Below, piece by piece: positions 5,686 through 21,968 of a stretch of DNA of 34,706 nucleotides. How positions within the stretch are numbered: position 1 is the first letter of the stretch; each line of letters opens with the position of its first letter. Position numbers and translations under genes: made by a program. The notes beneath the pieces were generated by a model that was not told where the DNA came from, did not search any database, and worked only from the letters and a program-made list of their open reading frames with translations. The stretch is from a virus: IMG/VR virus record IMGVR_UViG_3300045988_070092. One strand, given 5' to 3'.

Positions 5686-6149
5686 TTTGTACCTCCTAAT
5701 AATTCCGGATTGTCATAGATATTACCGATAACCTTCATTTCGCATCTCTTGACATTTTGATGATTTAATGGCATTGGATAGCAAAATGGCTCACACCTAC
5801 TGATTGCGTCTGTTGGAACCACTTCATAATGCCAGCCAATCGCGGTATCGACTGCTTGCTCTGTTATGATGTCAATTACACGGAATTCTCCAAACACTGC
5901 CTTTACAAGATCGTCCGGGTTGCCGTGACACATCAGAATATCATTCTCCCATATTTTCTTTCCATTCTTGTCGGTCAGTCCTGTATACTGGCAAATGGTA
6001 TCTTCATCAACCAGGAATTCACCCTCAAGGCTTTTATCATTGATATAATTCTTGTCACTAAGATAGCCATGCACCCATCTTCCATTAAGATACTCGTTAC
6101 TATCTATTGCATGGATATGTTTTGCTCTAAAAAGCATTTCTCTACTCAT
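5682..6149 (-). CDS. YopX-family protein
   Basis: 155 aa. MLFRAK.., QYTGLTDKNGKKIWENDIL and C-terminal VIGNIYDNPELL are hallmark YopX motifs. Confidence 0.85.
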   Translation of the reverse strand: MSREMLFRAKHIHAIDSNEYLNGRWVHGYLSDKNYINDKSLEGEFLVDEDTICQYTGLTDKNGKKIWENDILMCHGNPDDLVKAVFGEFRVIDIITEQAVDTAIGWHYEVVPTDAISRCEPFCYPMPLNHQNVKRCEMKVIGNIYDNPELLGGTK

Positions 6150-7942: not shown

Positions 7943-7980
7943 CTACTTTTTCTCCTTTCATAATATCTATCGCTGATTTG

Positions 7981-8154
7981 CTATAGTAATGATTCTGCAT
8001 CAATCTCACGTTCTTTTATCCACTTTCCTATGTCTTTAATCCATTTGTATTCTTCCGAGCACAAGCTCCGGTCTGGAATAATATATCTGCATGGTTTCTT
8101 CGCGTTAGTGCATTCCCAACCATGGTCCGTTCTTTTTGCATATTTACAAGCCAT
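7981..8154 (-). CDS. Small Cys-rich protein (57 aa)
   Basis: I start at MACKYAKRTDHGWEC after AAGGAGACAGAA. The track's extension to 8322 crosses non-coding repeats that are not in codon phase. Confidence 0.6.
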   Translation of the reverse strand: MACKYAKRTDHGWECTNAKKPCRYIIPDRSLCSEEYKWIKDIGKWIKEREIDAESLL

Positions 8155-9582: not shown

Positions 9583-11538
9583 TTATCCCGCCTTTCTCAT
9601 TTGAATCCGCTTTTTGAATGTATTCATAAACTTTTTTACATCTTCTCCCGGATCTTTGTTGTACTTCCCACGCACCTGGATCACTTCTCCCTCTCTGACC
9701 TCGACCGTGTAATAACTCTCTTCCGGTTCTTCCTTTTTTCTGATAAAAAGAATACAGGTCTCTCCGGATACCATTCTATCTATATAAGTCGCTACACAAT
9801 GGTGCTGGTTCTGCCCTTCCTGCCTGATTTCTCTTACTCTTTTTGGTAATCTCATCAACAGGTCATCCGTCTCCATTTCGTAGGCTTTCCATCCACGCCT
9901 TTTTATCATCTCTCTTAACGTTCCGTCCTTTTGGTCGTCTTTCTTTCCCTGCAATTCTATTTTTCTTTCTTCCTGCTCTTGCACGAGCTGATCATGACGT
10001 TCTTTTAAGTTCTTTGGATATAATGTATATGGGTCGTCCATGTTGTATCCCAAGATTGCGGCCATCTGTAGATAATCGTGATAATCCGTGACTGTCTGTC
10101 TATCCCCGTCATTCCATTTTCTTGTGGTATTTTCCCGGATATATCTAAGCATCTTATGTGGTGTTGTATGCCTCATGTATATTGCGAAATCCCTGCCAAA
10201 TTTAGACATTTCCTGAACCTGTTCCCATGTTACCCGGATTCCTGCCTGCTGGCAGTTATACAGTGCACTATATTCGCTCATGTATGGGTCTTTCTTTTTG
10301 ATGAGATTGTAATATTCGCCTTGAAGTCCCAGCACTTTTCTTAATTTCTTTTCTCTCAAGGAAAGCAGTGCATGATTTCCTCTGTCAATGCAGTCTGCAG
10401 TCAGATTGTAATATCCTGCTTTTACCAGTTTTTCGATTCCCTGATATTCCTTTGCCGTATCTATGTAATTCTGTTGGTAAAATGGAATATTCTGGCGGGC
10501 AAATTCCGGTAATCCTGAGTATTCCAATTTACTTCCTTTTAGCGCCCTTTTTAAATTTCGCGGATATAGGACTGCTTTTCCTTCTTCTTTTCTTTCTCCC
10601 CAATAATATCCTCCGAACTCATATCCATTACACCAGCGCACCTTATTCGTGGTCTTATATCTGTGGTAAGAATAAATGTATCGTCTATACCACAAGTCGT
10701 CGTATGTGATCCTTATACTTTCGTAGATGTTAAATTCCGTTCTTTCTCCTGCACGTATTCGCTGGTATACATGGAAGTACCGGAACACGAATCCGGCCGG
10801 AGTTTTCTGAATCAGTGCAGCGCCCGATTCATCCTTAATATTTGGGCTCTTTTTATAAGTTTTGTAGATAACTTTTCTCTTGCAGTATTTGCATTTCCCT
10901 TCCTGCCCGTACTTATGACCGGACAGTTCCTGCATCTTTCCGCAACAGGTGCATCGTCCTATTTTCTTTCCTGATTCGTAATACATGTATTGCGGAACGG
11001 CATCTTTTTTCGCCCATTCTTCAAAATCTTTCGGAATCTCTGGAATGATTGCCATCTCATCATCAATCCGATCCGTTTCTTTCCGATGCTTTTCGTACTG
11101 CTGCCACCCAAGGATTGCACTATGCAGGCTCTCTTCTCCATTCTTTGTAAAATCTTTTATAGTTTTACGGTCTTTTTCTGTAATCCAGTATGTCTGATAC
11201 GCGGCACTCTCGCCGTCATTGTAACTCACTCCAAACTGCAGGTTCTCAATGGTGGCTGTGCGCCACTTTCCTTCAATCGTCTCGTATGTATCGTACTTTC
11301 CATCATGTAAAAATATCCGAAATGCTGGGCGAGATGTTTTTAATCTTAAGTCCCTGTAGTAAAATACATCGACTTCCAATATTCCTTGTGTTTTTCTGGC
11401 TCTGTAGAATTTTCTGTATTTCGGTCCGGTGACTGATGGACGCTGATAACGATCATACTCCTCTTCGAGCCATGCTTTTTCGTACATTTCTTTTGTGGCT
11501 TTCATAGCTGGAAGCTTTAATAATTCGCTCTTTTTCAT
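9583..11538 (-). CDS. PcfJ-like protein with an internal zinc ribbon
   Basis: I start at MKKSELLK after GGAGGCGTAAGT. C-terminal ..EIRQEGQNQHHCVATYIDRMVSGETCILFIRKK.. is the PcfJ-type signature. CTCCGK...CKYCKRK zinc ribbon. Confidence 0.75.
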   Translation of the reverse strand: MKKSELLKLPAMKATKEMYEKAWLEEEYDRYQRPSVTGPKYRKFYRARKTQGILEVDVFYYRDLRLKTSRPAFRIFLHDGKYDTYETIEGKWRTATIENLQFGVSYNDGESAAYQTYWITEKDRKTIKDFTKNGEESLHSAILGWQQYEKHRKETDRIDDEMAIIPEIPKDFEEWAKKDAVPQYMYYESGKKIGRCTCCGKMQELSGHKYGQEGKCKYCKRKVIYKTYKKSPNIKDESGAALIQKTPAGFVFRYFHVYQRIRAGERTEFNIYESIRITYDDLWYRRYIYSYHRYKTTNKVRWCNGYEFGGYYWGERKEEGKAVLYPRNLKRALKGSKLEYSGLPEFARQNIPFYQQNYIDTAKEYQGIEKLVKAGYYNLTADCIDRGNHALLSLREKKLRKVLGLQGEYYNLIKKKDPYMSEYSALYNCQQAGIRVTWEQVQEMSKFGRDFAIYMRHTTPHKMLRYIRENTTRKWNDGDRQTVTDYHDYLQMAAILGYNMDDPYTLYPKNLKERHDQLVQEQEERKIELQGKKDDQKDGTLREMIKRRGWKAYEMETDDLLMRLPKRVREIRQEGQNQHHCVATYIDRMVSGETCILFIRKKEEPEESYYTVEVREGEVIQVRGKYNKDPGEDVKKFMNTFKKRIQMRKAG

Positions 11539-11540
11539 AC

Positions 11541-11981
11541 TTACGCCTCCAGGAAGTAATCTCTTGCCCATTCAAATACTGTCATATCTGCCACATAATG
11601 TTTTCCAGTATCCTTCTGGATCTTTTTGCAATTATCCTCAATCACTTTCATGCAGTTTTTTACGGATCTTGTGCGCCGTCGCACACATACCGCAAAGTGT
11701 TCGTCAACGCATTGACTCTTCAGATAGTCCAGAATCGGCTCAACCGGAATCTGATTATTTTTATAGTCCGCCGCCTCAATGTCCAGTTTTCCAATGGCTG
11801 CATTCATGCAGTCTGTCAGCTCTTTCGAACGTCCCTCTATCATGTCCTGCGCGAAAAATTCCGGAATACCGTTCTCTTTTGCAAGTTCCTTGATTCTTTC
11901 GGCATCCCCTTCCTGCAGTAACCCTAACGCACATGCATTGATTTCTTCTATGGAGTCCATATTTCCGAAAATATCATACAT
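11541..11981 (-). CDS. PcfK-like protein
   Basis: I start at MYDIFGNM after AGGAGGATAAGGAGA. ..ILDYLKSQCVDEHFAVCV..SVKNCMKVIEDNCKK..VADMTVFEWARDYF resembles PcfK-family proteins. Confidence 0.65.
   Translation of the reverse strand: MYDIFGNMDSIEEINACALGLLQEGDAERIKELAKENGIPEFFAQDMIEGRSKELTDCMNAAIGKLDIEAADYKNNQIPVEPILDYLKSQCVDEHFAVCVRRRTRSVKNCMKVIEDNCKKIQKDTGKHYVADMTVFEWARDYFLEA
11670..11685. promoter_or_regulatory. Palindrome copy D (minus strand: TGTGCGACGGCGCACA), inside the PcfK-like ORF
   Basis: 15/16 match to the perfect copy at 18788-18803. Confidence 0.45.
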
Positions 11982-12183
11982 TCTCCTTATCCTCCTTCGC
12001 CATTTCAATTCCGTAACTCGCCGTGTCATGAATTAATCTTTCTGCCATTTCCGGCAGCATATCCGTTTCCAGCATTCCTTCATACATGGACTTGGTTATC
12101 ATTATGTATTCTCCCAGTGTTTCTTTTCCCGTTCCTTCCACTTTTGCATGGGTTTTATCTCCATTCGTTTTCGCTTCGATCAT
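11974..12183 (-). CDS. Hypothetical protein (69 aa)
   Basis: I start at MIEAKTNG, coupled to the upstream stop (ATGA) after AAGGAGAGAAAG. Confidence 0.6.
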   Translation of the reverse strand: MIEAKTNGDKTHAKVEGTGKETLGEYIMITKSMYEGMLETDMLPEMAERLIHDTASYGIEMAKEDKENV

Positions 12184-12605
12184 CTTTCTCTCCTTTTCAT
12201 TTCCGTGTCCAGCCATTCGCTATAGCTGTGTCTGCCTTCTTCTGTGTGGATTTCCTGCCCTTGTATCCGCTCGTACACTTCTTCCCATAACTCTGCGTGC
12301 TTGATCGGCTCGCTCTTGGCATTCAAATAGTTATTGCCCGCCCATTTCTCTAACTGGGTACCGAGCATGTTCAGGACGAAACGGTCTTCTGTGTGGATAT
12401 GGACTTCACAGCTCTGATTAAGCCTGTCCAGTGCGTCAGACAGTGACCTTAATGTCGCCTCGTGATATGTACCGAATATATGCCCGAATCCGTTTACAGT
12501 TTTCTCCTCACCGTTCTTTATACAGGCGACCACGTAACCGTGCCACCTTTCGTCTTTACTAAGGCTGGCAGTACTTTGAGCGAGATAAATATCTACTTTG
12601 TACAC
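12180..12605 (-). CDS. RNase H-like domain protein
   Basis: 141 aa. ..GTYHEATLRSLSDALDRL..CEVHIHTEDRFVLNML...W..NNYLNAKSEPIKHAELWEEV follows the RNase HI layout. Confidence 0.6.
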   Translation of the reverse strand: MYKVDIYLAQSTASLSKDERWHGYVVACIKNGEEKTVNGFGHIFGTYHEATLRSLSDALDRLNQSCEVHIHTEDRFVLNMLGTQLEKWAGNNYLNAKSEPIKHAELWEEVYERIQGQEIHTEEGRHSYSEWLDTEMKRRER

Positions 12606-12799
12606 GCCTGTTCCTCCAGTTCTCTTTTTCTTTTCTCGTTAGCTTCGATGCGGTCTCTCATGACCATGACCGCTTTCGCAATTGCCATATCTGCCAATGC
12701 TCTGGTGTCCAATACCGGCTCCATGCCATGTTCCTTGTTCCAGGCGTTATACACGCGCCCAAACTCTTTCAAAAGCGTCTCATTCACTTCAGCTTTCAC
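12593..12799 (-). CDS. Hypothetical protein (68 aa)
   Basis: ORF from the track, tightly packed between rep and the RNase H-like gene. Confidence 0.6.
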   Translation of the reverse strand: MKAEVNETLLKEFGRVYNAWNKEHGMEPVLDTRALADMAIAKAVMVMRDRIEANEKRKRELEEQACTK

Positions 12800-12800
12800 T

Positions 12801-13562
12801 TTAAATCCTCCTGTTCAATCGTATTTGCGTGACTCTTCGGAATCTATAGCCTGTGGCCGGGTTGATTCCTTCATGCATGTGAGCTATATAATACCCAGCC
12901 CTTGGTTTTACCTTTTTCTTCCATCTCGTCATCTTTTTTACTCTTGCTTCCGGAAGCGGCATATTCCGGGAGGTGGAATAATTCGATTCCTTGACTCTCG
13001 GCTTTCCCTCGGTGCCATCTTTCTTGGTTTCTGTAGTTCTCTCATCTTTTGTCATGTATGAGGAAAGCTTCGTGAAATCCTCATCATAACTCTTTGAATC
13101 CTTGATCGATTCTATATAGACGCCTCCGTGCTCCCAGACTTTCTGAATAAGGCTTGCTGTGTTGCCAGTGTTGTTGACTATCAAGTGGATGTGCCACGCT
13201 CCGCGAGTACCCATTTCAATATTGCGGATCCAGTACAGCTCAATACCTCTCTTTTTGTACTCTGTCCGGATTTTTCTGATAAACTTCGAAAAGTCTTTTT
13301 TTGCTGATGCCATGTCCGGTGGACGTTCCTCCACCTTGTATGTCAAGGTGGCGAATAGGTCTCCCTCCCGGAAATATGTCAGCATTCTCTGTCTGCATCG
13401 CTTCTCTTTATTCCTTTTATTAACTCTCTCCATTTCTTCCGGAGTTGCCTTTTTTCTTTTTATCCTTTTTTCTCCAGGAGCGCCATATTTTCCATCGTGA
13501 AATTCTTCCGTGTCAATGATGTCTCCTCCCCGAAAAGAATATGTTTTCTTTTTTATAGCCAT
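12801..13562 (-). CDS. rep: Rolling-circle replication initiator (HUH endonuclease)
   Basis: 253 aa. Motif 1 FATLTY, HUH motif AWHIHLIVNN, and a Tyr motif LSSYMTKD in the canonical order and spacing. SD GAGGAA. Confidence 0.75.
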   Translation of the reverse strand: MAIKKKTYSFRGGDIIDTEEFHDGKYGAPGEKRIKRKKATPEEMERVNKRNKEKRCRQRMLTYFREGDLFATLTYKVEERPPDMASAKKDFSKFIRKIRTEYKKRGIELYWIRNIEMGTRGAWHIHLIVNNTGNTASLIQKVWEHGGVYIESIKDSKSYDEDFTKLSSYMTKDERTTETKKDGTEGKPRVKESNYSTSRNMPLPEARVKKMTRWKKKVKPRAGYYIAHMHEGINPATGYRFRRVTQIRLNRRI

Positions 13563-13641
13563 GTGTGTTCCTCGTCTTAATCTGTCCTAAAATTAATAGC
13601 CTAATGGACTATTTAAAAGGGTTGTTATGCCCTTTATTTCC

Positions 13642-13670
13642 TTGACTTTTCCGCATCATTCAGCTATACT
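13642..13670 (+). promoter_or_regulatory. Sigma70-type promoter TTGACT-N17-TATACT on the plus strand
   Basis: -35 at 13642-13647, 17-nt spacer, -10 at 13665-13670. No plus-strand ORF lies downstream. Confidence 0.55.
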
Positions 13671-13676
13671 ATAATT

Positions 13677-13755
13677 GTTTTTAGTTAGCTGAACTTCCAG
13701 TGGGATTGGAAGGGCGAAAAAGGAATTTGTTGACGCAAGTTCCTTTTTCTTTTTT
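13677..13755 (+). ncRNA. Candidate ~80-nt small RNA (promoter to terminator), antisense to the region upstream of rep
   Basis: Bounded by the 13642 promoter and the 13717-13760 terminator. Contains the hairpin cttcca-gtgggat-tggaag (13694-13712). No ATG. Confidence 0.35.
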
Positions 13756-13760
13756 ATTTT
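13717..13760. terminator. Bidirectional intrinsic terminator
   Basis: 9-bp stem aaaaaggaa/ttccttttt (13717-13725 and 13740-13748) with inner pairs. T-runs follow on both strands (plus: cttttttatttt; minus: TTTTTCG). Confidence 0.7.
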
Positions 13761-13975
13761 ACATACCTGACCGCCTTATTGACTATGTACGCTGCTGTCA
13801 CGATGATTAATCCGGCCACGATTCTTGTCCCTCCTGGGAGTAATGCCGGACTACTGTTTGTCATATGACTTACACCTATCCAGGTGGCTGCCATTCCGAT
13901 GACTCCGACCGTCTCCGTGACTGCTCTTACTGCCTTACAAATCAATATCTTTCGCTTGTGCGCTTTAATACCCAT
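13754..13975 (-). CDS. Small membrane protein with 2 predicted TM helices
   Basis: I start at MGIKAHKRK after GAAGGTGGTG. Hydrophobic stretches VGVIGMAATWIGV and IVAGLIIVTAAYIV. Confidence 0.65.
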   Translation of the reverse strand: MGIKAHKRKILICKAVRAVTETVGVIGMAATWIGVSHMTNSSPALLPGGTRIVAGLIIVTAAYIVNKAVRYVK

Positions 13976-14210
13976 TTTTCTTACACCACCTTCTATACTC
14001 AATATCCAGCCTTGCTTCCTGGATCACCGATTCTAATGCTCGGAGCTTGGCTATTTCTGTTCGTCTTCCTACTTGACAGACTTCCATGCTTTCACAGTGT
14101 TTTCTCTGTTCTGCTGCATGCCGGAACAGTATCTCTTCTATTTTTCTCACATTACACCTGCTCTCTGCTTCCTTACTTTTTGCTGGAGCTTGATGTCTTT
14201 CTGCCTCCAT
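13965..14210 (-). CDS. Hypothetical protein; start uncertain
   Basis: 81-aa ORF from the track, overlapping both neighbours. Poor SD. Confidence 0.4.
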   Translation of the reverse strand: MEAERHQAPAKSKEAESRCNVRKIEEILFRHAAEQRKHCESMEVCQVGRRTEIAKLRALESVIQEARLDIEYRRWCKKNGY

Positions 14211-14386
14211 TCCTCGAGGCCTTCGGTATCGTAAAAGAATTTGCTATTTTGTACTGCGGGATCATCCTGCCACGCGAACGTCTGCCCTGTCGATGCAAAC
14301 GCTCTTATCAAATATTTCTCTGTAAATCCCATCTTCATCAATTCAGAACGTGACATTATTTTTTTTGGATATTCCATGGTTATCAT
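14147..14386 (-). CDS. Small DNA-binding protein (excisionase/HTH_17-like)
   Basis: 79 aa. MSRSELMKMGFTEKYLIRAF...FAWQ....NSKFFYDTEGLEEWR resembles excisionase-type wHTH proteins. Confidence 0.5.
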   Translation of the reverse strand: MITMEYPKKIMSRSELMKMGFTEKYLIRAFASTGQTFAWQDDPAVQNSKFFYDTEGLEEWRQKDIKLQQKVRKQRAGVM

Positions 14387-14622
14387 CCTCTTTTCTTTTT
14401 TATTTCTACATTTTCTAGATCTTTTGACAAAAGTTCTGCAAATCTTTTAGAGCATCTCATACCTATCTCAGGTTCTCTGTATGCAATTTCTTTCCACGCT
14501 CTCTCGCACCCTTTCTTGAGTTCTTTGTAAGTCTGGCTCTCACCTCTGATTCGCTTATATTCCGCATCAATACTTTTGAATATTTCCTCCAACAATCTGT
14601 TTTTGCTCACGCTCTTTCTCAC
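14383..14622 (-). CDS. Hypothetical protein (GTG start)
   Basis: 79-aa ORF. Its GTG overlaps the TGA of the questionable ORF 14619-14831 (GTGA). Confidence 0.55.
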   Translation of the reverse strand: MRKSVSKNRLLEEIFKSIDAEYKRIRGESQTYKELKKGCERAWKEIAYREPEIGMRCSKRFAELLSKDLENVEIKKKRG

Positions 14623-14627
14623 CTCTC

Positions 14628-14657
14628 TTGCATTATTTTTCTCCTTCTTTTATACTT
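14628..14657 (+). promoter_or_regulatory. Candidate promoter TTGCAT-N18-TATACT for 14692-15192
   Basis: Read directly. The -10 lies in a 10-bp direct repeat ttttatactt (14648-14657 and 14660-14669). Confidence 0.45.
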
Positions 14658-14691
14658 GTTTTTATACTTAGTATTTCGAAAGGATGTTGCT

Positions 14692-15192
14692 ATGAATTTT
14701 GTTAAATCTATTCTTACTCGCGATAACATCACGCTTTTTCTATCCATTTGTGGTGCTCTTGGTAGCTTGTTTCTTTTTATTCGCACCCGAATCTTAGAAA
14801 AAGTCGACATCGATGTTAAAATCCCTGGCATTTGTAAACCTGAAATGGGTTCTCTTATTGCTTATTTCACATTTGCAAATAACTCGCGCTTGCCAGTTTC
14901 TATCACTGGAATTTCCATCGTTTGTGGCGAAGATCTGTATCCTTGTGAAAATATTTCAGATTACATTATCAATGTCACCTACAGTTCTGGTGATTGGCCA
15001 CAATCTACGATTCAAAATATTCCGTTGCCGATCCATCTCCCAGCGTTAGGGGCTGCTTGCGGATATGTATCTTTTGCTGTTCCTTCAAAAGATTTTCAAT
15101 TTCCTTCCAAGCTTCTGACGATTCGATTGTCGACCAATCGGAACCAAATAATCGAAAAGACACTTGAACCCGAGACTCTTCTCGATCTATAA
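14692..15192 (+). CDS. N-terminally membrane-anchored beta-rich protein (Sie-like architecture)
   Basis: I start at MNFVKSILTRDN after GAAAGGATGTTGCT. TM helix ITLFLSICGALGSLFLFI. One of only three plus-strand genes. Confidence 0.7.
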   Translation: MNFVKSILTRDNITLFLSICGALGSLFLFIRTRILEKVDIDVKIPGICKPEMGSLIAYFTFANNSRLPVSITGISIVCGEDLYPCENISDYIINVTYSSGDWPQSTIQNIPLPIHLPALGAACGYVSFAVPSKDFQFPSKLLTIRLSTNRNQIIEKTLEPETLLDL

Positions 15193-15412
15193 CGCGAACC
15201 TCCGAAACAAAAACATCATACATATCTGCCTCGTGTATTGTATTTGGGAGCTCTATTTCAACTCCATTAAGCAGCTCCCAAATACGATTTTGTGCCTGTG
15301 CCAATAGCTTCGATGCTTTTTCCAGCTTTTTATTTGCTCCGTATCCTTCTCTTAGCACTTTTATCGGTCCCTTTCCTCTTTTTATGTTTATTAGTGTTGT
15401 TTTCTTTAACAT
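15005..15412 (-). CDS. Hypothetical protein; its 3' 188 nt are antisense to 14692-15192
   Basis: 135-aa ORF from the track. The sequence looks protein-like throughout. Confidence 0.55.
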   Translation of the reverse strand: MLKKTTLINIKRGKGPIKVLREGYGANKKLEKASKLLAQAQNRIWELLNGVEIELPNTIHEADMYDVFVSEVRVIDREESRVQVSFRLFGSDWSTIESSEAWKEIENLLKEQQKIHIRKQPLTLGDGSATEYFES

Positions 15413-15453
15413 CTTTCTCGCCTCATTTCTCTAATACTTGCTAAAAATTAATT

Positions 15454-15606
15454 TTATTTTTCTGCCTGCTGGTTGTCTTCCGGCAGATCTTTTAATATTT
15501 TCAGAACTTCCGGTAATATAGCCACTTCTTGTGGGTGTATATCTCCATCTCCATTTAATGTTCGAATTGCAAAATTTTCCATTGTTTCAACAATCTTTTT
15601 ATCCAT
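15454..15606 (-). CDS. Small ORF (50 aa)
   Basis: ATG 15606 follows GGAGAGGTAAGGAAG. Hand translation: MDKKIVETMENFAIRTLNGDGDIHPQEVAILPEVLKILKDLPEDNQQAEK. Confidence 0.5.
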   Translation of the reverse strand: MDKKIVETMENFAIRTLNGDGDIHPQEVAILPEVLKILKDLPEDNQQAEK

Positions 15607-15611
15607 CTTCC

Positions 15612-15812
15612 TTACCTCTCCATCTGTGTTGTATTTGTATTAAAGTTTTCGAGTAACTCTTTAATTTCATTTCTGAATCCCTTAATACTTTCTACCAGCT
15701 CTTCATCATCATTTAGTTTTTCTTCTATATATTTTTTTATAGTTAGCTGTTCTTTTTCGAGAGCAGCTACTTTTCCCCTTAATTCATTCCATTCTTTTTC
15801 TGGAATCTCCAT
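15612..15812 (-). CDS. Small coiled-coil protein
   Basis: I start at MEIPEKEW after AAGGAGGCGAGGAAG. Confidence 0.6.
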   Translation of the reverse strand: MEIPEKEWNELRGKVAALEKEQLTIKKYIEEKLNDDEELVESIKGFRNEIKELLENFNTNTTQMER

Positions 15813-15835
15813 CTTCCTCGCCTCCTTATGTTTTA

Positions 15836-15864
15836 TTGACATTTTTCTCCGCTTCTCCTATCCT
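15836..15864 (+). promoter_or_regulatory. Sigma70-type promoter TTGACA-N17-TATCCT for 15918-16103
   Basis: -35 at 15836-15841 and -10 at 15859-15864, followed by the conserved box TTTAATTACAAG. Paralogous to 16472-16512. Confidence 0.6.
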
Positions 15865-15917
15865 TTAATTACAAGCTCTGGCCGGAGCCTAGTTTTTGAA
15901 GAAAGGAGATATATTGC

Positions 15918-16103
15918 ATGTTTAAAGACGTAAGTGTAGAACAGCGTACACACGATTTAGCCTTACAGGCTACCATCCTTTACTATCAGCAGCACGATAT
16001 TTCTGTTGACGAATCTAATGCCTGGGATTTTGTAATGAAATATCGCAGTCTGTTAAAACCTATTCGCAATTGTGTTGAAGAAGGTCGCACTGATCTTCAG
16101 TAA
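15918..16103 (+). CDS. Hypothetical 61-aa protein (plus strand)
   Basis: SD AAAGGAGATATATTGC precedes the ATG. Its 3' end overlaps the convergent 16060-16284 by 44 nt. Confidence 0.6.
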   Translation: MFKDVSVEQRTHDLALQATILYYQQHDISVDESNAWDFVMKYRSLLKPIRNCVEEGRTDLQ

Positions 16104-16284
16104 TCGTGGTCTGAATCTGTACATTTGCTACAATCTTTTTTATTTCTTCTTCTGCAAATGTGCCAATCATCAAGAACTGTTGTACTGTGAAGTTTTTCTT
16201 TGAACATTCTTTTAGGAAGTTTCGAAAAGCCTCCAGTGCATCAGTTCTTTTTTGTTCATATTCTTCAAATGTTTGTTTTTCCAT
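16060..16284 (-). CDS. Hypothetical protein
   Basis: I start at MEKQTFEEY after AAGGAGGCGAGGTGAAGAAG. Confidence 0.6.
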   Translation of the reverse strand: MEKQTFEEYEQKRTDALEAFRNFLKECSKKNFTVQQFLMIGTFAEEEIKKIVANVQIQTTITEDQCDLLQHNCE

Positions 16285-16302
16285 CTTCTTCACCTCGCCT
16301 CC

Positions 16303-16452
16303 TTATGCGCTCTTATCTTCTTTCTCACGTTCGCTTTCGCGAACAATGCTCATTCCTTCAGCTACTCCAAGAAGCCTCTCTTTCTTTGTGTCTGGTAGCT
16401 TCGGAACTATCTCTGATAACTTCTGTAGTATTTCTCTTTCTTTTTCAGACAT
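16303..16452 (-). CDS. Small ORF (49 aa)
   Basis: ATG 16452 follows GTGAGGCGAAAAAA. Hand translation: MSEKEREILQKLSEIVPKLPDTKKERLLGVAEGMSIVRESEREKEDKSA. Confidence 0.5.
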   Translation of the reverse strand: MSEKEREILQKLSEIVPKLPDTKKERLLGVAEGMSIVRESEREKEDKSA

Positions 16453-16471
16453 TTTTTTCGCCTCACTTTCA

Positions 16472-16500
16472 TTGACTTTTTGTTTTTTCTCTCTTATCCT
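16472..16500 (+). promoter_or_regulatory. Sigma70-type promoter TTGACT-N17-TATCCT for 16545-16874
   Basis: -35 at 16472-16477 and -10 at 16495-16500, followed by TTTTAATTGCAAG. Confidence 0.6.
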
Positions 16501-16544
16501 TTTAATTGCAAGTTCGTTTAAATATAAAGGAAAGTGGTGTGTTT

Positions 16545-16874
16545 ATGTCTACTGATATAAGTCACCGACAATTTGTTCTTCTCAGAAAATTCCAGAATGG
16601 TCATCCTATCATCTCTTCTTTCAGCAAATCTGATAGGGATGATTGTATCTATCTTGTTAAATCTGGTTTTTTAGTTCCAGTCAAAGAATATGTTCATTCT
16701 GATTTTGCCATTGGCGGAGCTCGTCCAGTCCCAACGGTTGTATCGTATTCCACTACCGCTGCAGGTCGCGCTGCTATGTATGATTTCAGAGCCGCTTTCC
16801 ATAAATGGTGGATATCTGTTGTTATTTCTTCCGCCGCTTTTATGGTTTCGTTGCTTGCATTCTTATTTAAGTAA
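16545..16874 (+). CDS. Tail-anchored membrane protein with an N-terminal winged-helix-like region
   Basis: I start at MSTDISHRQF. FVLLRKFQNGHPI...CIYLVKSGFLVPV looks wHTH-like. C-terminal TM helix WWISVVISSAAFMVSLLAFLF. Confidence 0.65.
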   Translation: MSTDISHRQFVLLRKFQNGHPIISSFSKSDRDDCIYLVKSGFLVPVKEYVHSDFAIGGARPVPTVVSYSTTAAGRAAMYDFRAAFHKWWISVVISSAAFMVSLLAFLFK

Positions 16875-16932
16875 AACCATACAGATAATCGTTACTATCT
16901 CCATCTCTTATACATAATATTAAATAAAAGTA

Positions 16933-16965
16933 CAAAAAAAAGCAAGAACCTTTAAAGTTCTTGCT
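16933..16965 (-). terminator. Intrinsic terminator after the tRNA-Lys fragment and XRE gene
   Basis: 9-bp stem agcaagaac/gttcttgct (16941-16949 and 16957-16965), then T8 on the minus strand. Confidence 0.8.
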
Positions 16966-16973
16966 TGTCTACA

Positions 16974-17020
16974 TGAGCGTGCGGGGATTCGAACCCCGGA
17001 CAACTTGATTAAAAGTCACG
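16974..17020 (-). other. 3' fragment (47 nt) of a tRNA-Lys(UUU): anticodon loop, variable loop, T arm and acceptor 3' strand; putative attP core or relic
   Basis: Minus strand: CGTGA-CTTTTAA-TCAAG-TTGTC-CGGGG-TTCGAAT-CCCCG-CACGCTC-A. No D arm or 5' acceptor strand upstream. Confidence 0.7.
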
Positions 17021-17024
17021 TCGT

Positions 17025-17339
17025 TCAAATCCTTGCAAGCGCCGTAATAACGCCGTTTTTCAAGTGTGCTCTGAGACACATTTGAGACATCTTGATTTTA
17101 ATTGATTTTTTCGCTCTTGTCAATAATATTATTTTTTCGTCTTTTCGACCAACCAAATAGTCCAAGCTTACATTAAAATAGTCAGCAATATTAATAAGCA
17201 TACCAATGTCTGGTTGTCTACCTTTTGCCTCATACCCAGCAATTGTTGACCTTGACACACCGAGTTCAAGTCCTAATCCAAATTGAGATAGATCATTCTC
17301 TTTTCTTAGCATTATTAATCTTTTTGAAAATTCTTCCAT
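17025..17339 (-). CDS. XRE-family HTH transcriptional regulator
   Basis: I start at MEEFSKRL. LRKENDLSQFGLGLELGVSRSTIAGYEAKGRQPDIGMLINIADYFNVSLDYLVGR is a classic HTH_3 sequence. Confidence 0.88.
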   Translation of the reverse strand: MEEFSKRLIMLRKENDLSQFGLGLELGVSRSTIAGYEAKGRQPDIGMLINIADYFNVSLDYLVGRKDEKIILLTRAKKSIKIKMSQMCLRAHLKNGVITALARI

Positions 17340-17350
17340 ATATATCACCA

Positions 17351-17404
17351 ATTCTACAATACAGAAAAATGTGTAAAAAGTGAAGTGGTAATATTTTACA
17401 ATAC
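17351..17404. promoter_or_regulatory. Two copies of a 12-mer, ATT(C/T)TACAATAC, 42 bp apart, upstream of the XRE gene; candidate operators
   Basis: Read at 17351-17362 and 17393-17404. Confidence 0.4.
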
Positions 17405-17435: not shown

Positions 17436-18773
17436 TTATCTAAATTGAATCGCTTCGATTCTGAGCGCCTGTCCGACCGTTCCCATCGTGGCTACTCCGT
17501 CCGCCTTTGTCCAGTCTGTCCAACCGGAATTCTGAACATGTACGCGATACTCGAAGTCACCTTCGAAGCACAAGCATTCCAGGCGTTTACCCTCGCCTAC
17601 TGTGCCGATAATAGTATCTTTTTTGATGACACCGTAGTCTTCCCATCCGATTCCCTGGATGTGCGCTTTCGCCTTGATTTCCGTGCCAAGTGGATTGATT
17701 TTGAAAGCTTCTAAGCGAAGATTATGGCCGGTGATACCAGCGACGTTCTGACAAGCTTTTTCGCCGATCCAACCATAATCCTGTACGTGTGGATTGACAA
17801 GGAATTTAGCAGCCATGATCTCAATCGCTTCAATTTGCAGTCCCTTTCCTTTTGTGCCCGCCCAGGATCCGTTGAATGTCCAATCTGTCCATCCGATGTT
17901 TTTCTGGTGAACTCTGTAGATATATGGCGTATCCTTACCGGTAATCTTGATTGCTTCGATACGTTTGTTCTGACCTGTGGTGCCAAGGATAGTGTCTTTG
18001 TTGATGTTTTTAAACTCTTTGTCGCCTACATCCTTGATATGCACTACTACGTCTGTTTCTCCGACCGGAATAAGTCGGAACGCTTCGATTCTTCGGTTCT
18101 GTCCGGTCGTTCCAACCATTGCTCCATCGCACTGCCAAGACGCCCAGCCGATTTCGCGCATGTGCGCCTGGTATGAAATTTCTCCAAGGTGACCGGTGGA
18201 ATTTTGTGTAACGCCTCCACTTTTTAATTCTCCGTCGATTGGTTCTTTCTTTGGTGCGGATGCGACAATTCCGAATGCATTTAAAATACCTCTAGCTAAG
18301 TCGTCTGTCTTGGCGTTAAATTTATTCAGGTCTTCTGCGTTGGTGATAAATCCATTTTCTAACAGGCGATAGCTGTATCCTTTTTTAGCTGCTCTTTTTG
18401 CGTTTGCAAGGTCGCTTCGCCCTACAATGCTATTGCTACGTCCCGGGAAAAATGAGGTGATGAAATCCGCGAGCTTATTGTCGTACTGATCTGCTGCAAC
18501 ACCACCTTTGATAATTACATGCCCGCCTTTCGCAGATGCAGATGCACTGTCCATGTGGAGTTCCAGAATTTCATAACTTTTTGGAATGTTGAGTGAACTG
18601 ATTCCCTTGTCTGCGTACCAGTTTCGATTGGTATCCGCAATTGTGACGTTGTTTCCTCCTAATACTGCGAGTCTGGAAGCAAGGTATCTGACTCTCTCTG
18701 CTTCTGTGTATCCGTGCCCTACGGCTCCTGAATCTCCTGCGCCGTGTCCGGCAATGACAAGTAAATGTGCCAT
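17436..18773 (-). CDS. Endolysin: N-acetylmuramoyl-L-alanine amidase (Amidase_3-like) plus six ChW cell-wall-binding repeats
   Basis: N-terminal LLVIAGHGAGDSGAVGHGYTEAE. Six repeats of the type Y..H.q.iGW..W...G...GT.G...R.EA..I. Confidence 0.9.
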   Translation of the reverse strand: MAHLLVIAGHGAGDSGAVGHGYTEAERVRYLASRLAVLGGNNVTIADTNRNWYADKGISSLNIPKSYEILELHMDSASASAKGGHVIIKGGVAADQYDNKLADFITSFFPGRSNSIVGRSDLANAKRAAKKGYSYRLLENGFITNAEDLNKFNAKTDDLARGILNAFGIVASAPKKEPIDGELKSGGVTQNSTGHLGEISYQAHMREIGWASWQCDGAMVGTTGQNRRIEAFRLIPVGETDVVVHIKDVGDKEFKNINKDTILGTTGQNKRIEAIKITGKDTPYIYRVHQKNIGWTDWTFNGSWAGTKGKGLQIEAIEIMAAKFLVNPHVQDYGWIGEKACQNVAGITGHNLRLEAFKINPLGTEIKAKAHIQGIGWEDYGVIKKDTIIGTVGEGKRLECLCFEGDFEYRVHVQNSGWTDWTKADGVATMGTVGQALRIEAIQFR

Positions 18774-18787
18774 GTTATTCTCCTTCC

Positions 18788-18803
18788 TGTGCGACGTCGC
18801 ACA
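18788..18803. promoter_or_regulatory. Perfect 16-bp palindrome TGTGCGACGTCGCACA (copy B), abutting the endolysin SD
   Basis: Read directly, between the holin stop and AGGAAGGAGAATAAC-ATG. Confidence 0.65.
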
Positions 18804-18806
18804 TCA

Positions 18807-19241
18807 CTATTTGCTTTCCGCATCTTCTGGTAATTCTTCTGTCATATCTTCCAAGAATTTCTGAATCCATTTCTTGATTCTTGCCGGGACTGGCAAGCCA
18901 CATAGAGTCATATTCTTTAAAATACTGACCGCTTCGTATAGTATAAATAACAGACAGAAAAATTCACAGATTCCAAGTTTCTGAATTCCCATAATCTGTA
19001 TGTACTTCTCTGGCACCATGCCAAGCATATTAATATGCATGATTACATCTGTTGCCATTAAAAGACAAACTGAGAAAAGCATGGCTGCCTTGCGGATTGC
19101 TCCGTCAATTCCAACACAACTATTAAACTTATGCTCCTTGATTGCCCGGAGGACTCCAAGAAGCGTGTCCAGTGTCACTGCAATCAGCAGAATCCTGATA
19201 AATGAGTTACTTGATAGTAATACTAAAATCTTTTCCATCAT
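18807..19241 (-). CDS. Holin
   Basis: 144 aa. Several TM helices. ..LDTLLGVLRAIKE..S....G..RK.. and ..YEAVSILKNMTLCGLPVP.. are typical of Firmicute phage holins. Lies directly upstream of the endolysin. Confidence 0.85.
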   Translation of the reverse strand: MMEKILVLLSSNSFIRILLIAVTLDTLLGVLRAIKEHKFNSCVGIDGAIRKAAMLFSVCLLMATDVIMHINMLGMVPEKYIQIMGIQKLGICEFFCLLFILYEAVSILKNMTLCGLPVPARIKKWIQKFLEDMTEELPEDAESK

Positions 19242-19267
19242 ATAAATCGTCCTTTCCTTATTTTATG

Positions 19268-19293
19268 GTATAAAAATAAGACCTTACGGTCTT
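19268..19293 (-). terminator. Intrinsic terminator 2 downstream of the moron
   Basis: AAGACC-GTAA-GGTCTT, then ATTTTTAT on the minus strand. Confidence 0.75.
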
Positions 19294-19326
19294 GCTCTGA
19301 TTTCCATGTGTTCACCTCTTTTGCAT

Positions 19327-19351
19327 AGAAAAAGAGAGGCGTTAACCTCTC
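19327..19351 (-). terminator. Intrinsic terminator 1 overlapping the moron stop codon
   Basis: GAGAGG-TTAACG-CCTCTC, then TTTTTCT on the minus strand. Confidence 0.75.
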
Positions 19352-19899
19352 TTGTCTTTCTTTTTCTTGTTCTTTCCTAATAACGGATTGATAATAAGTA
19401 CTCTGGTTACAACAAGTAATATCACAATACAAATTACAACAAATATATTTACTTCTATTATCCCCCAAAATACATCATACATATTTTCTTGCGTAAGCTT
19501 AAAAGTAATATTTGCATTAACTGTTATCAAAGCAAATATGGCAACAAACACAGATATAATAGATATTATATTTGCATACAGCCCATTAACGTTTTTACTA
19601 ACTTCATCATACTTTTCTTCCAAATCATCATATGTATCTTTTGCATTTACAGTCTCTTCTTTTACTACTTTACGTATATTTTCCCAATCGTTAACTGTCG
19701 TATCTTCTTCTATAGAATAATATGTTTTTTCACCATTTTTGGTCTTGAACGAATACACTATTTTCTTATCAATCAAATCATTAAGGCAAATTATACAAGT
19801 AGCTCTTGATATTCCCAACTGTTCCGAAATATTTGTTGATGTCATTGCTGGGCTTGTCTTTAATAACTGTTGGATTTCCTCGCCTATGTCTCTAATCAT
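19342..19899 (-). CDS. Moron gene: winged-helix N-domain, acidic coiled coil, two TM helices and a basic tail
   Basis: 185 aa. ..TSTNISEQLGISRATCIICLNDLIDKKIVYSF... TM helices LYANIISIISVFVAIFALITV and IIEVNIFVVICIVILLVVTRVLII. Visibly AT-rich. Confidence 0.85.
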   Translation of the reverse strand: MIRDIGEEIQQLLKTSPAMTSTNISEQLGISRATCIICLNDLIDKKIVYSFKTKNGEKTYYSIEEDTTVNDWENIRKVVKEETVNAKDTYDDLEEKYDEVSKNVNGLYANIISIISVFVAIFALITVNANITFKLTQENMYDVFWGIIEVNIFVVICIVILLVVTRVLIINPLLGKNKKKKDKRG

Positions 19900-19925
19900 T
19901 TTATACCCACTCCCCTTCCACCACC

Positions 19926-19954
19926 ATTATACAGCAGAAGGAGATGTCTGCCAA
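19926..19954 (-). promoter_or_regulatory. Near-consensus sigma70 promoter TTGGCA-N17-TATAAT (with TG extension) for the moron
   Basis: Minus strand: TTGGCAGACATCTCCTTCTGCTGTATAAT. -35 at 19949-19954 and -10 at 19926-19931. Confidence 0.75.
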
Positions 19955-19956
19955 GA

Positions 19957-21747
19957 TTACTCTCCCAGTATCAACGCCAGCTTCTTAGCTCTAAGGTTGT
20001 CTCCTCCACCGGCAGATACTTCCATATAGCATTCTGCATCATTCTCCACGATTGTTGTTCCGGCATAAGTTACAAGATTCTGGTAGGCTTGAATCTCTTC
20101 TGGTGTGAGGTCGCGCTCGATTGGCTCTGCACGAACATATAATACGTGTGTATCCGTCTGCTCAACAATCTTTTTGAAAGATTCTATTGCCTTTTTGTTA
20201 TCCGATGCATCATCTAAATCACTTGTATGCAATGAAATTGTAATATAGTTACCATTCACTTCTGCATTGCAACCAATTTTTCTCCCTCCCCAGGCGTCAG
20301 CATTATGTTGGCATATAGTAGCTAATGTTTTTGTATTTCCTACATGCGCATATTTCATTAAATGCGCATAAAATCCAGTACCATTACTGACAATATAATT
20401 CACTCCCCAGGTACACCATTCGAGGTTGATATCTTTTAGCGGTAAGTCACATATATTCTGCACATACTTTCCTCGCTTCAAATCCACATAGTCCGCTATC
20501 CACTGCTGACCATTGGCATCGGTGTAGTTGCCGTCTGTGTCTACTGGAATAGCTGGAAGACTTGTTGGCGTGCTGATGGAGAGGGATTGTGGCTCATGGT
20601 ATGGTTCATAGGAAGTGTACCCTCCTTCTTCAATTTGAAAGTTCTTAATTGCAACGCTGCAATTATTACAAGTAATGGTAAAATATATAGAATCCGTTCC
20701 GTCTGGAATTAAAAGTGGAATTTCTACATCTACATATTTCCCTATTTCTTGTTTTATTTCTTCATTTAAAATAATGTTTTCACTATCTTTAAAAACCAAT
20801 ATTCTTGCAGGATCTAATTTTTCAATCTCCATCATTTTTTGCACTGCTTTGTATGATAATGACATTGTGTAAAGTATACCTGATATTACTTTGATTTTTT
20901 CACTGAAGTTAACCCAACCATTAGAATAGTTTGTTGTTCCAGGAGATTCTGCATTCATATTGGTAGGTCTCGCATAAATCGTATTATTTTCAATTTTTTC
21001 AATTTTTAAATATTCGTTGTCACGAATATCGGTTAGCTCAAACAGGTTCTTCCCTCGCACTTCTACGCCAATCTTCCCATCACTGCCAGCGCTTACAATC
21101 TGCTGTGGATAGTCTGGCGATGGGCTTGGTTGCCCGCCAGTGTAAGGCTCCCACGGAATAACTTTATCTCCGATAGACGCCATGAGTCCTTTTATGGTCG
21201 TTGTATACGTGCCATATCCTATTGTTTTTTCGTTTTCCTCGATAATATGAATACGACACTTTACTAGTTTGGCATCTGCTGGTATTGAAACTGTTATAGG
21301 CTTATTCATTCCAAACAAATTCCAAGAAATTGCGCCATCTGGTTTTTTGTAGTTAATATCGCATATCAGCCTCAATGCCTCGCCCGCATCGTTTTCTGCT
21401 GACTCAACACTTGCTGTAATTATTTTCCCTGCCACTTTTGCTGTGTCGAGTTCGATACTTACGTTTCTATACGCACTATTGTCTCCCTCTGCATATACCC
21501 CTTGCGCAGTTATTACATATCCGTCATGTTGAGTTGAGGCTATTTCTCCTGCACTACTGCCTACATTTTTAATATCTAACAACTGCGCTCCTGTGGTACG
21601 CTCCTGCTTGCTCCAGCCAAATACTTTCATCTCATTCATCGGATTATTTTTTAACGTATCCGTCATGATTGCTGGGTTCCCGGAGGCAGATATCTCTGCC
21701 CCGGTTCTGTTCTTGAGGATTTTATATAATAATAAGCTATCCATCAT
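19957..21747 (-). CDS. Large tail fibre / receptor-binding protein (second fibre module)
   Basis: I start at MMDSLLLYKI, coupled to the upstream stop (ATGA). ..GGQPSPSPDYPQQIVSAG...VRGKNLFEL.. is a recurrent fibre motif. The central section is AT-rich. Confidence 0.75.
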   Translation of the reverse strand: MMDSLLLYKILKNRTGAEISASGNPAIMTDTLKNNPMNEMKVFGWSKQERTTGAQLLDIKNVGSSAGEIASTQHDGYVITAQGVYAEGDNSAYRNVSIELDTAKVAGKIITASVESAENDAGEALRLICDINYKKPDGAISWNLFGMNKPITVSIPADAKLVKCRIHIIEENEKTIGYGTYTTTIKGLMASIGDKVIPWEPYTGGQPSPSPDYPQQIVSAGSDGKIGVEVRGKNLFELTDIRDNEYLKIEKIENNTIYARPTNMNAESPGTTNYSNGWVNFSEKIKVISGILYTMSLSYKAVQKMMEIEKLDPARILVFKDSENIILNEEIKQEIGKYVDVEIPLLIPDGTDSIYFTITCNNCSVAIKNFQIEEGGYTSYEPYHEPQSLSISTPTSLPAIPVDTDGNYTDANGQQWIADYVDLKRGKYVQNICDLPLKDINLEWCTWGVNYIVSNGTGFYAHLMKYAHVGNTKTLATICQHNADAWGGRKIGCNAEVNGNYITISLHTSDLDDASDNKKAIESFKKIVEQTDTHVLYVRAEPIERDLTPEEIQAYQNLVTYAGTTIVENDAECYMEVSAGGGDNLRAKKLALILGE

Positions 21748-21968
21748 AACCACGGTCCCCATGTGCCATCATTGGCCATAATGCATACATCACATGCAGT
21801 AGTGTAGCAAATTGACCCTGGTAGAATCTTTCCTTTGAATGTGTCTCCCAAACTTGCTCGTTTCCACTCTACTTCTGTCGGAAGAGTGTCTTCCTTGGAA
21901 TCCGCAAGAAATTTTCCAAGAATTCCCTCTCCCACTTCTGCCTTTTTTGCTTTGATTAGTGATACCAT
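21744..21968 (-). CDS. Small tail-module protein
   Basis: 74-aa ORF, translationally coupled to the fibre gene. Confidence 0.6.
   Translation of the reverse strand: MVSLIKAKKAEVGEGILGKFLADSKEDTLPTEVEWKRASLGDTFKGKILPGSICYTTACDVCIMANDGTWGPWL

Follow-up and report, generated by a model that had tools for sequence, protein, structure and literature searches.

Two groups of described systems are among those closest to the element analyzed here, a single-gene cassette in the virus record IMGVR_UViG_3300045988_070092 of IMG/VR (hereafter the window, meaning the whole stretch of 34,706 nucleotides). Panacea is the antitoxin domain of the PanA-PanT pairs, and the validated PanT proteins, among them WP_077993242.1, WP_000019185.1 and WP_095295403.1, include membrane toxins that depolarize cells, one of which has a coiled-coil N-terminus and C-terminal transmembrane (TM) helices (Kurata et al. 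2022, PMC8832971). PanA is predicted to neutralize one TM toxin, PanT D11, by binding to the stretch ahead of its TM helices (Ernits et al. 2023, PMC10440598). In CapRelSJ46, a variable domain acts both as an antitoxin in cis and as the phage sensor, and unfused two-gene relatives exist (Zhang et al. 2022, PMC9712102). Our analysis shows that the cassette is a mobile moron carried by siphophage prophages of Lachnospiraceae. Its single protein joins a variable winged helix-turn-helix (wHTH) head to a conserved hairpin of two TM helices, and the same hairpin module occurs in a sister subfamily whose genes are paired with Panacea antitoxin genes. Judged from its sequence, the protein is probably a new factor for phage exclusion or abortive infection that a single gene encodes.

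The main features of the locus lie where the initial annotation had placed them, between the tail fibre and the lysis genes of a probable Dorea formicigenerans prophage; all are on the minus strand. The cassette contains a promoter, a ribosome-binding site (RBS), a single open reading frame (ORF) of 185 aa and a hairpin (hairpin 1). The gene order is 601-aa fibre gene, cassette, a second hairpin (hairpin 2), holin and endolysin, as follows:

~19323..19957, minus strand: inserted cassette (moron), ~635 bp, delimited by BLAST against the empty site L029, with joints ambiguous by ~4 nt
19957..21762, minus strand: putative tail fibre or receptor-binding protein gene, 601 aa, left flank, assigned by position only, without a family match
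19926..19954, minus strand: predicted promoter of sigma-70/SigA type, TTGGCA, 17-nt spacer, TATAAT
19910..19919, minus strand: RBS GGAAGGGGAG, 10 nt 5' of the ATG, read from the sequence
19342..19899, minus strand: coding sequence of 185 aa, product identical to DAS67446.1 (Caudoviricetes sp.)
19323..19353, minus strand: predicted cassette terminator, a 9-bp stem with the stop codon in its loop, then TTTTTCT
19278..19320, minus strand: backbone element outside the cassette, comprising an RBS, a mini-ORF (MEIRARP), hairpin 2 and a T-run
18807..19241, minus strand: holin (Phage_holin_4_1), right flank
17436..18773, minus strand: endolysin (Amidase_3 and six ChW repeats), after the holin

The insertion is apparent from two empty sites, L029 and L030 (L numbers denote the loci compared, P numbers the homologous proteins). 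In both, the holin is 100% identical to that of the window and the fibre belongs to the same cluster, yet the cassette is missing, and 77-78 nt separate the fibre stop from the holin start. Homology between the window and L029 stops at the fibre stop (~19958) and resumes at 19322 with a 4-nt overlap, which gives an insert of ~635 bp, and the same boundaries are visible by eye in the alignment with the empty sites. Hairpin 2 is kept in L029 and L030 and belongs to the phage backbone. In all, 80 IMG/VR loci with a holin 75-100% identical to that of the window were searched over the 3 kb 5' of the holin, using a profile of the C-terminal module. The gene was found in one contig (L031) and was missing from the other 79.

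The cassette is also portable. Genes for the identical protein, and for homologs of 81%, 48%, 47% and 46% identity, lie downstream of those for the tail fibre or receptor-binding protein and upstream of a lysis cassette. The neighboring lysis cassettes span three holin families (Phage_holin_4_1, Phage_holin_5_2 and Phage_r1t_holin), the endolysins nearby are of the Amidase_3 type with and without ChW repeats, the Amidase_2 type and the GH25 type, and the tail modules differ too. In L121 (Candidatus Acetatifactor), the gene lies within the head-tail block of a phage of 49-50% GC, in a cassette with TTGCAT-N17-TATAAT, the RBS TAAGGAGG, a hairpin over the stop codon and a GC content of 0.33. The promoter, RBS, hairpin and low GC content all recur in L007, L013, L018, L021 and L022. 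In L021, a remnant of ~170 nt from the 3' end of a window-type fibre gene stands beside the cassette despite different tail genes, which would make homologous recombination in the flanking sequences the probable means of transfer.

The same locus shows a further peculiarity. It has two copies of the cassette promoter's 31-nt core, at 5990-6020 and 7961-7991, and the second copy, 90% identical, fronts a block of three genes (285, 76 and 149 aa, without a Pfam match) that is missing from L022. This arrangement suggests stacking of cargo by recombination at shared joints.

The position and mobility of the gene bear on whether its product could be a lysis accessory, that is, an antiholin, holin modulator or XhlA-like factor tied functionally to the lysis cassette. 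The gene does stand mostly 5' of a holin gene, immediately or one to a few genes away, and the module, in which a short loop joins the two TM helices and the C-terminal tail is basic, has the general layout of a class II holin. However, two of the 79 contigs lacking the gene have a holin 100% identical to that of the window, and where the gene is present it adjoins three unrelated holin families and is equipped with its own predicted promoter and terminator. The L121 copy sits in a head-tail block, while in L013-L017 an integrase gene and three others come between this gene and the holin. With hhalign, the probability of a match to three neighboring holins was <1%. For the initial annotation, homologs that are lysis components would have been a refutation, and the absence from 79 of the 80 related-holin phages answers this in the negative. 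We give a lysis accessory very little chance. An XhlA-like factor in particular was rejected because there is no family match.

The expression signals were compared with the initial annotation in detail. TTGGCA at 19954..19949 and TATAAT at 19931..19926 agree with the consensus at 11 of 12 positions, so the near-consensus promoter stands as annotated. Two details attached to it do not: the TG of the claimed extension directly abuts TATAAT and is not in the TGnTATAAT register, and the -35 hexamer begins 2 nt past the fibre stop codon instead of overlapping it. The 34.7-kb window holds 3 TTGACA-N17-TATAAT sites with at most one mismatch against 0.43 expected, a count reached in 2 of 100 shuffles. 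As these statistics from the window alone are borderline, the case for the promoter rests on conservation. A matching promoter is also found 5' of homologs that are just 45-50% identical, and an equivalent one is kept in L007, L013, L018, L021, L022 and L121. A GGAGG-type RBS occupies the same place in the homolog loci. Hairpin 1 (19353..19332, minus strand, with a T-run) has a folding energy of -13.6 kcal/mol (z -3.6), and its counterparts in L007, L021, L022 and L121 likewise overlap the stop codon. Hairpin 2 (19293..19278, minus strand, with the T-run ATTTTTAT) has one of -8.3 kcal/mol (z -3.9). Both of the tandem terminators described earlier thus exist as hairpins with T-runs, but only hairpin 1 belongs to the cassette; two were seen because the backbone element with MEIRARP and hairpin 2 follows it. 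The single 185-aa gene between promoter and terminator was confirmed.

The base composition of the cassette is anomalous. The GC content is 0.296 for the gene and 0.317 for the cassette, compared with 0.470 for the endolysin gene and 0.412 for the window, close to the hand counts of 28% for the gene and 50% for the endolysin given previously, and the GC content at third codon positions of the gene is 0.253. Only 0.4% of same-size segments have a GC content as low, and the lowest ones cover the gene and its immediate flanks. In other loci, the homologous cassettes have a GC content of 0.27-0.33 against 0.35-0.50 for their surroundings. Insertion polymorphism, portability, conserved promoter, RBS and terminator, and anomalous composition strongly support the initial reading of this element as a moron. 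At the level of sequence, and with promoter and terminator as predictions, the cassette has every feature expected of one.

Other cargo occupies the same position in related phages, as a survey suggested in the initial annotation revealed. At the fibre-holin junction of L078-L080, we found Abi_alpha (PF14337, E 1.9e-52) and a DUF2971 protein, ~300-2300 nt 5' of the holin. A 207-aa family is present at the junction in L051 and L053, and its L103 copy, located further upstream, has a sub-threshold match to AbiGi. The L050 junction encodes a 184-aa protein with an N-terminal TM helix. These cargo genes are AT-rich, and the fibre-holin junction is a cargo hot spot.

In the P0049 loci (L013-L017, 8565-11620), a tyrosine integrase and three small genes lie between the moron and the r1t-type holin. 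They are preceded by repeated GCACAG..TATA..AGTG-like motifs and are possibly another element inserted at the hot spot.

The protein itself can be divided into the following regions:

19705..19899, minus strand: residues 1-65, wHTH head, predicted to be cytoplasmic, variable, from the AlphaFold model, Foldseek and divergence
19588..19704, minus strand: residues 66-104, acidic helical linker, net charge -6, possible coiled coil
19384..19587, minus strand: residues 105-172, conserved two-TM hairpin module
19345..19383, minus strand: residues 173-185, basic C-terminal tail, net charge +6

AlphaFold, run on a 42-sequence alignment, produced a model with a mean predicted local distance difference test score (pLDDT) of 71.8 and a predicted template modelling score (pTM) of 0.35. 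The model contains a canonical winged helix at residues 1-63 with a pLDDT of 83-89 (helices 5-15, 21-28 and 32-44; strands 48-52 and 59-63), followed by a long helix from residue 70 to 136 and a second helix from 140 to 175. Foldseek aligned the head with MarR/ArsR winged helices at a root-mean-square deviation of 1.3-2.8 Å over 62-66 residues, in agreement with the N-terminal wHTH proposed from the sequence. Among PDB and BFVD structures, the winged helix alone was matched and the whole architecture never. The hydropathy profile shows two hydrophobic spans, 103-135 and 140-177, which together with the +6 tail bear out the annotated pair of TM helices and basic tail. Across the family, the loop between the helices is slightly acidic (-0.8) and the C-terminal tail basic (+3.7, with +6 for the window protein); the positive-inside rule would thus put both termini, and hence the head, in the cytoplasm. 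The extracytoplasmic loop is predicted to be very short, at ~10-15 residues. As for the acidic coiled coil of the initial annotation, the linker is indeed acidic, but a coiled coil is only suggested, by a helical model with a pLDDT of 53-67 and by a single heptad register in which 8 of the 10 a/d positions are hydrophobic.

Database searches with the window protein gave no family above cut-off in Pfam or NCBIfam, with Pfam MarR, HTH_24 and NCBIfam MarR all below; the NCBIfam matches were weak and confined to the wHTH level. The HTH_24 score was 21.2 against a cut-off of 21.9, which homologs exceed. PHROGs yielded weak matches to two families of "unknown function" only, a sequence search of the PDB returned nothing meaningful, and tblastn against 50,697 GenBank phage records gave 0 matches, leaving no annotated cultured phage for comparison. 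An Rfam search of 18700..20100 found nothing, and a literature search for an equivalent architecture found nothing relevant. In PADLOC-DB v2.0.0, there were just weak matches at the level of the wHTH (Csa3, CasR, SoFic) and a CorA-like one at E 0.007-0.05, which agrees with the earlier statement that this is not a named defense system. Kinship with CorA-like proteins was rejected, as the PADLOC match is weak and fits a shared topology only, and there is no GMN motif in the loop.

Conservation is concentrated in the TM hairpin. In an alignment of 42 full-length homologs, the mean pairwise identity is 70% for the module, 38% for the linker and 31% for the head. Twelve of the 13 invariant positions are in or next to the hairpin (Y108, N110, I112, V119, F122, L124, N128, N130, N151, C157, L162 and I170), the exception being Y61 in the head. 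The head keeps mainly its hydrophobic core, and the exposed positions of its recognition helix vary, with one basic residue there in the window protein. In distant pairs, the rate of nonsynonymous substitution (dN) is 0.15-0.28 in the module versus 0.6-1.0 in the head, a 3-5-fold difference. Close pairs show purifying selection on both head and module (omega 0.16-0.36), which indicates that the head is functional, though fast-evolving. The initial annotation had laid its emphasis on a DNA-sensing wHTH. This has to be shifted: the wHTH is the variable part, without conserved DNA-contact residues, and the TM hairpin is the conserved core.

These properties also bear on a second alternative, a membrane-tethered transcription regulator whose wHTH would bind prophage or host DNA and whose TM anchor would govern its availability. 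The MarR/ArsR-like fold of the head, the HTH_24 scores above threshold in homologs and the name given in databases are in its favor. Against it, the exposed recognition-helix positions are unconserved, the MarR dimerization helices are missing from the model, and the most conserved part is the membrane hairpin and not the DNA-binding domain. Furthermore, the gene is dispensable in phages whose holin is identical and whose fibre is of the same family, and an unrelated helical bundle can take the place of the head. We consider such a regulator quite improbable.

A search of 1.84 billion proteins with the module profile returned 107 representatives, with the module always at the C-terminus. Of 90 heads compared, from N-terminal regions of at least ~60 residues, 67 cluster with the wHTH and 8 share another head. 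A scan of genome representatives gave 5 loci only, and a search of a 90%-clustered database with the module alone contributed little, as most of what it retrieved was short fragments. Where a source is named, it is Dorea, Roseburia, Anaerostipes, Acetatifactor or a metagenome-assembled genome (MAG) of Lachnospiraceae, and the cluster of the window protein includes Dorea formicigenerans proteins. The exact protein sequence is indexed in 139 assembly-collection blocks, and single cluster members occur on dozens to >100 contigs. Existing annotations read hypothetical protein or "winged helix-turn-helix transcriptional regulator". A chance ORF was rejected, given the existence of >100 clusters and the purifying selection. 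Among the close relatives, P0003 and P0018 (88-99% identical to the window protein) have a common extra segment, FRNMGCSSVVFDKRQMNGVDRIV, inside or replacing the winged helix; these may be alleles in which an insertion or rearrangement disrupts the head.

The alternative head links the module to Panacea. In P0101, P0102, P0104 and P0105, the same module (58-76% identical) follows an unrelated head with the motifs GNRHSYS and KLYDHxxLECNR. This head was modeled as a confident helical bundle after a disordered N-terminus and had no structural match in the PDB. In all four contexts examined (P0101, P0102, P0105 and the frameshifted P0108), the gene is directly downstream of a SocA_Panacea (PF13274) gene of 144-145 aa, and its ATG lies 14-17 nt before the Panacea stop codon. 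Within the prophages, the pairs occupy accessory regions, either past the endolysin or close to the integrase, and their arrangement, as judged from the sequence, is a toxin-antitoxin-like layout. A hidden Markov model of four PanA proteins detected none in the window or in 24 wHTH-type loci (L001-L024), with positive controls at E ~1e-90. In an Anaerostipes MAG (L115, 4595-5309), the alternative-head gene beside PanA is frameshifted into ORFs of 126 and 102 aa and is possibly an inactivated toxin.

We propose that the window protein is a membrane effector that is made constitutively and remains inactive until infection is sensed by its wHTH head in the cytoplasm, a tentative reading to which we give somewhat less than an even chance. 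In the lysogen, host RNA polymerase would transcribe the cassette from its own promoter. The product would be an inner-membrane protein with both termini in the cytoplasm, made up of the wHTH head, the acidic linker, an asparagine-rich TM hairpin and the basic tail. Because its TM helices are asparagine-rich, its loop short and its tail basic, we infer that the hairpin is a membrane-damaging effector, depolarizing in a holin-like way. In the sister proteins, the same module would be restrained in trans by PanA. The wHTH subfamily has no partner gene and its cassette holds one gene, so the head must supply whatever control exists; it would take over this control in cis and keep the protein inert in the lysogen. 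On infection, the head might bind a component of the incoming phage, releasing or clustering the TM hairpins, with abortive infection or exclusion of the competitor phage as the outcome. This component could be protein or DNA, and the variable recognition surface of the head fits the sensing of either alike.

The reading of the locus as superinfection exclusion or abortive infection, already offered in the initial annotation, is plausible in that the Abi_alpha and other AT-rich cargo of the same junction and the module shared with PanA-paired proteins would favor a role in defense, with the role itself deduced from sequence. A more far-reaching version holds that one depolarizing two-TM module is placed under interchangeable control, either by a Panacea antitoxin in trans or by a hypervariable wHTH head in cis, and that this constitutes an undescribed single-gene abortive-infection system of human-gut Lachnospiraceae prophages. 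Taken as a whole, we regard this version as rather doubtful.

Several observations weigh against a head-gated toxic effector. The window protein has no PanA partner, and its membership in a toxin class would come through the homology of one module only. PADLOC has no real match to it, and the pTM of the model is just 0.35. The ratio of dN to the synonymous rate (dS) does not clearly indicate that the head is under positive selection, with dS saturated in distant pairs. In addition, the near-consensus promoter and strong RBS imply an abundant constitutive protein, which would fit more easily with a harmless exclusion protein, and the conservation of the TM hairpin could equally mean that it binds a conserved membrane partner.

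The last two points lead to the main alternative, superinfection exclusion without toxicity. Here, the protein would block DNA entry or another membrane step, its hairpin docking on a conserved host or phage component, and the cell would survive. The membrane location of a moron product made from a strong, constitutive-looking promoter and RBS is compatible with this, as is the lack of an antitoxin gene alongside. However, an external loop of ~10-15 residues and a cytoplasmic head are unlike known exclusion proteins such as Ltp and Sie2009, which act from outside. Moreover, the module is paired with PanA in all four sister contexts, which implies harm when it is unrestrained. We judge non-toxic exclusion unlikely, and retain the infection-sensing membrane effector as our working model.

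Prophage-encoded defenses of the dominant human-gut Firmicutes are almost unexplored, and this protein is common in gut metagenomes yet annotated merely as hypothetical or as a transcription regulator. Natural isogenic phages with and without the cassette exist, and the putative effector module is separable from two alternative control domains, one of which is linked to the well-studied Panacea antitoxin. If our model is correct, a membrane toxin would be switchable between control by an antitoxin in trans and control by a sensor in cis, and the fibre-lysis junction of these phages would be a hot spot of defense cargo worth mining.

Other features of the phage were noted alongside. Between the cassette and the holin, at 19307..19284 on the minus strand, the mini-ORF ATGGAAATCAGAGCAAGACCGTAA, preceded by an RBS, encodes MEIRARP, and the 5' arm and loop of hairpin 2 consist of its last two sense codons and stop codon. 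The peptide is invariant in 9 loci (the window, L029-L032, L046, L007, L021 and L022), 5' of two different lysis cassettes, in 7 nucleotide versions that differ at synonymous positions only (e.g., CGC/CGT versus AGA for Arg). Together with hairpin 2, it could possibly form a translation-dependent leader-peptide attenuator of read-through into the lysis genes. The sequence IRARP-stop recalls IRAGP, the arrest motif of SecM.

The ends of the prophages vary as well. In L005-L008, L010 and L022, prophages of two lysis types abut a shortened Mn_catalase/CotJC gene beside cotJB and cotJA, which suggests integration into the sporulation gene cotJC. Just past the endolysin of the window, at 17025..17351 on the minus strand, lies an HTH_3/CI-repressor-like gene with a GC content of 0.343. 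It is present in L001-L004 and missing in L005 and L006, where host DNA directly follows the endolysin, and has the appearance of one more variable accessory gene at the end of the prophage. In the window (9583..17000) and L003, early or replication genes (REP_ORF2-G2P, PcfK and PcfJ by the annotation of L003) follow the lysis module, whereas host genes follow it in L001, L002 and L004-L006. The window therefore appears to be the phage in an excised or circularly permuted form, in which no integrase was recognized.

Set against known systems, the protein falls outside the holins, the MarR-family regulators and the systems in PADLOC. The morons of HK97 and lambda, together with Sie2009 and Ltp, are the classical phage morons and prophage exclusion genes. 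With these, the cassette shares the promoter-gene-terminator layout, the deviant composition, the position between genes that are adjacent in related phages and the membrane location of the product. It has no sequence relation to them, and its soluble domain is predicted to be cytoplasmic rather than external. Class II holins, and AbiZ, a holin-like abortive-infection effector, resemble the module taken by itself in their two TM helices, short loop, highly basic C-terminal tail and association with lysis genes. The protein is not similar to the adjacent holins and matches neither a holin family in Pfam or PHROGs nor AbiZ in PADLOC. It has an additional head and linker of ~100 residues and is dispensable for the lysis cassette, beside which a bona fide Phage_holin_4_1 gene stands. 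The likeness to MarR/ArsR regulators is confined to the fold of residues 1-65; here, there are no dimerization helices and no conserved recognition-helix residues, and a membrane hairpin is fused to the fold.

The PanT toxins (Kurata et al. 2022; Ernits et al. 2023) likewise place C-terminal TM helices behind a cytoplasmic helical or coiled-coil N-terminus and are carried by prophages, and the sister subfamily with the same TM module overlaps an upstream SocA_Panacea gene. The window gene differs in having no PanA partner and a winged helix as its head, and the pairing of its sisters is predicted from gene order. As the sequences stand, the window protein is not of the PanT class as defined by gene pairing, though its module is shared with the paired proteins. 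CapRelSJ46 (Zhang et al. 2022) differs in its effector, a tRNA-modifying enzyme instead of a membrane hairpin, and in its reversed domain order. In addition, the wHTH is not homologous to PanA, so the change of control in this family would be a replacement rather than a fusion. The parallel lies in the overall design: like CapRelSJ46, a single prophage polypeptide combining a conserved toxic part with a variable antitoxin and sensor part, the window protein may couple a conserved toxic module (70% identity) to a variable sensing head (31% identity).

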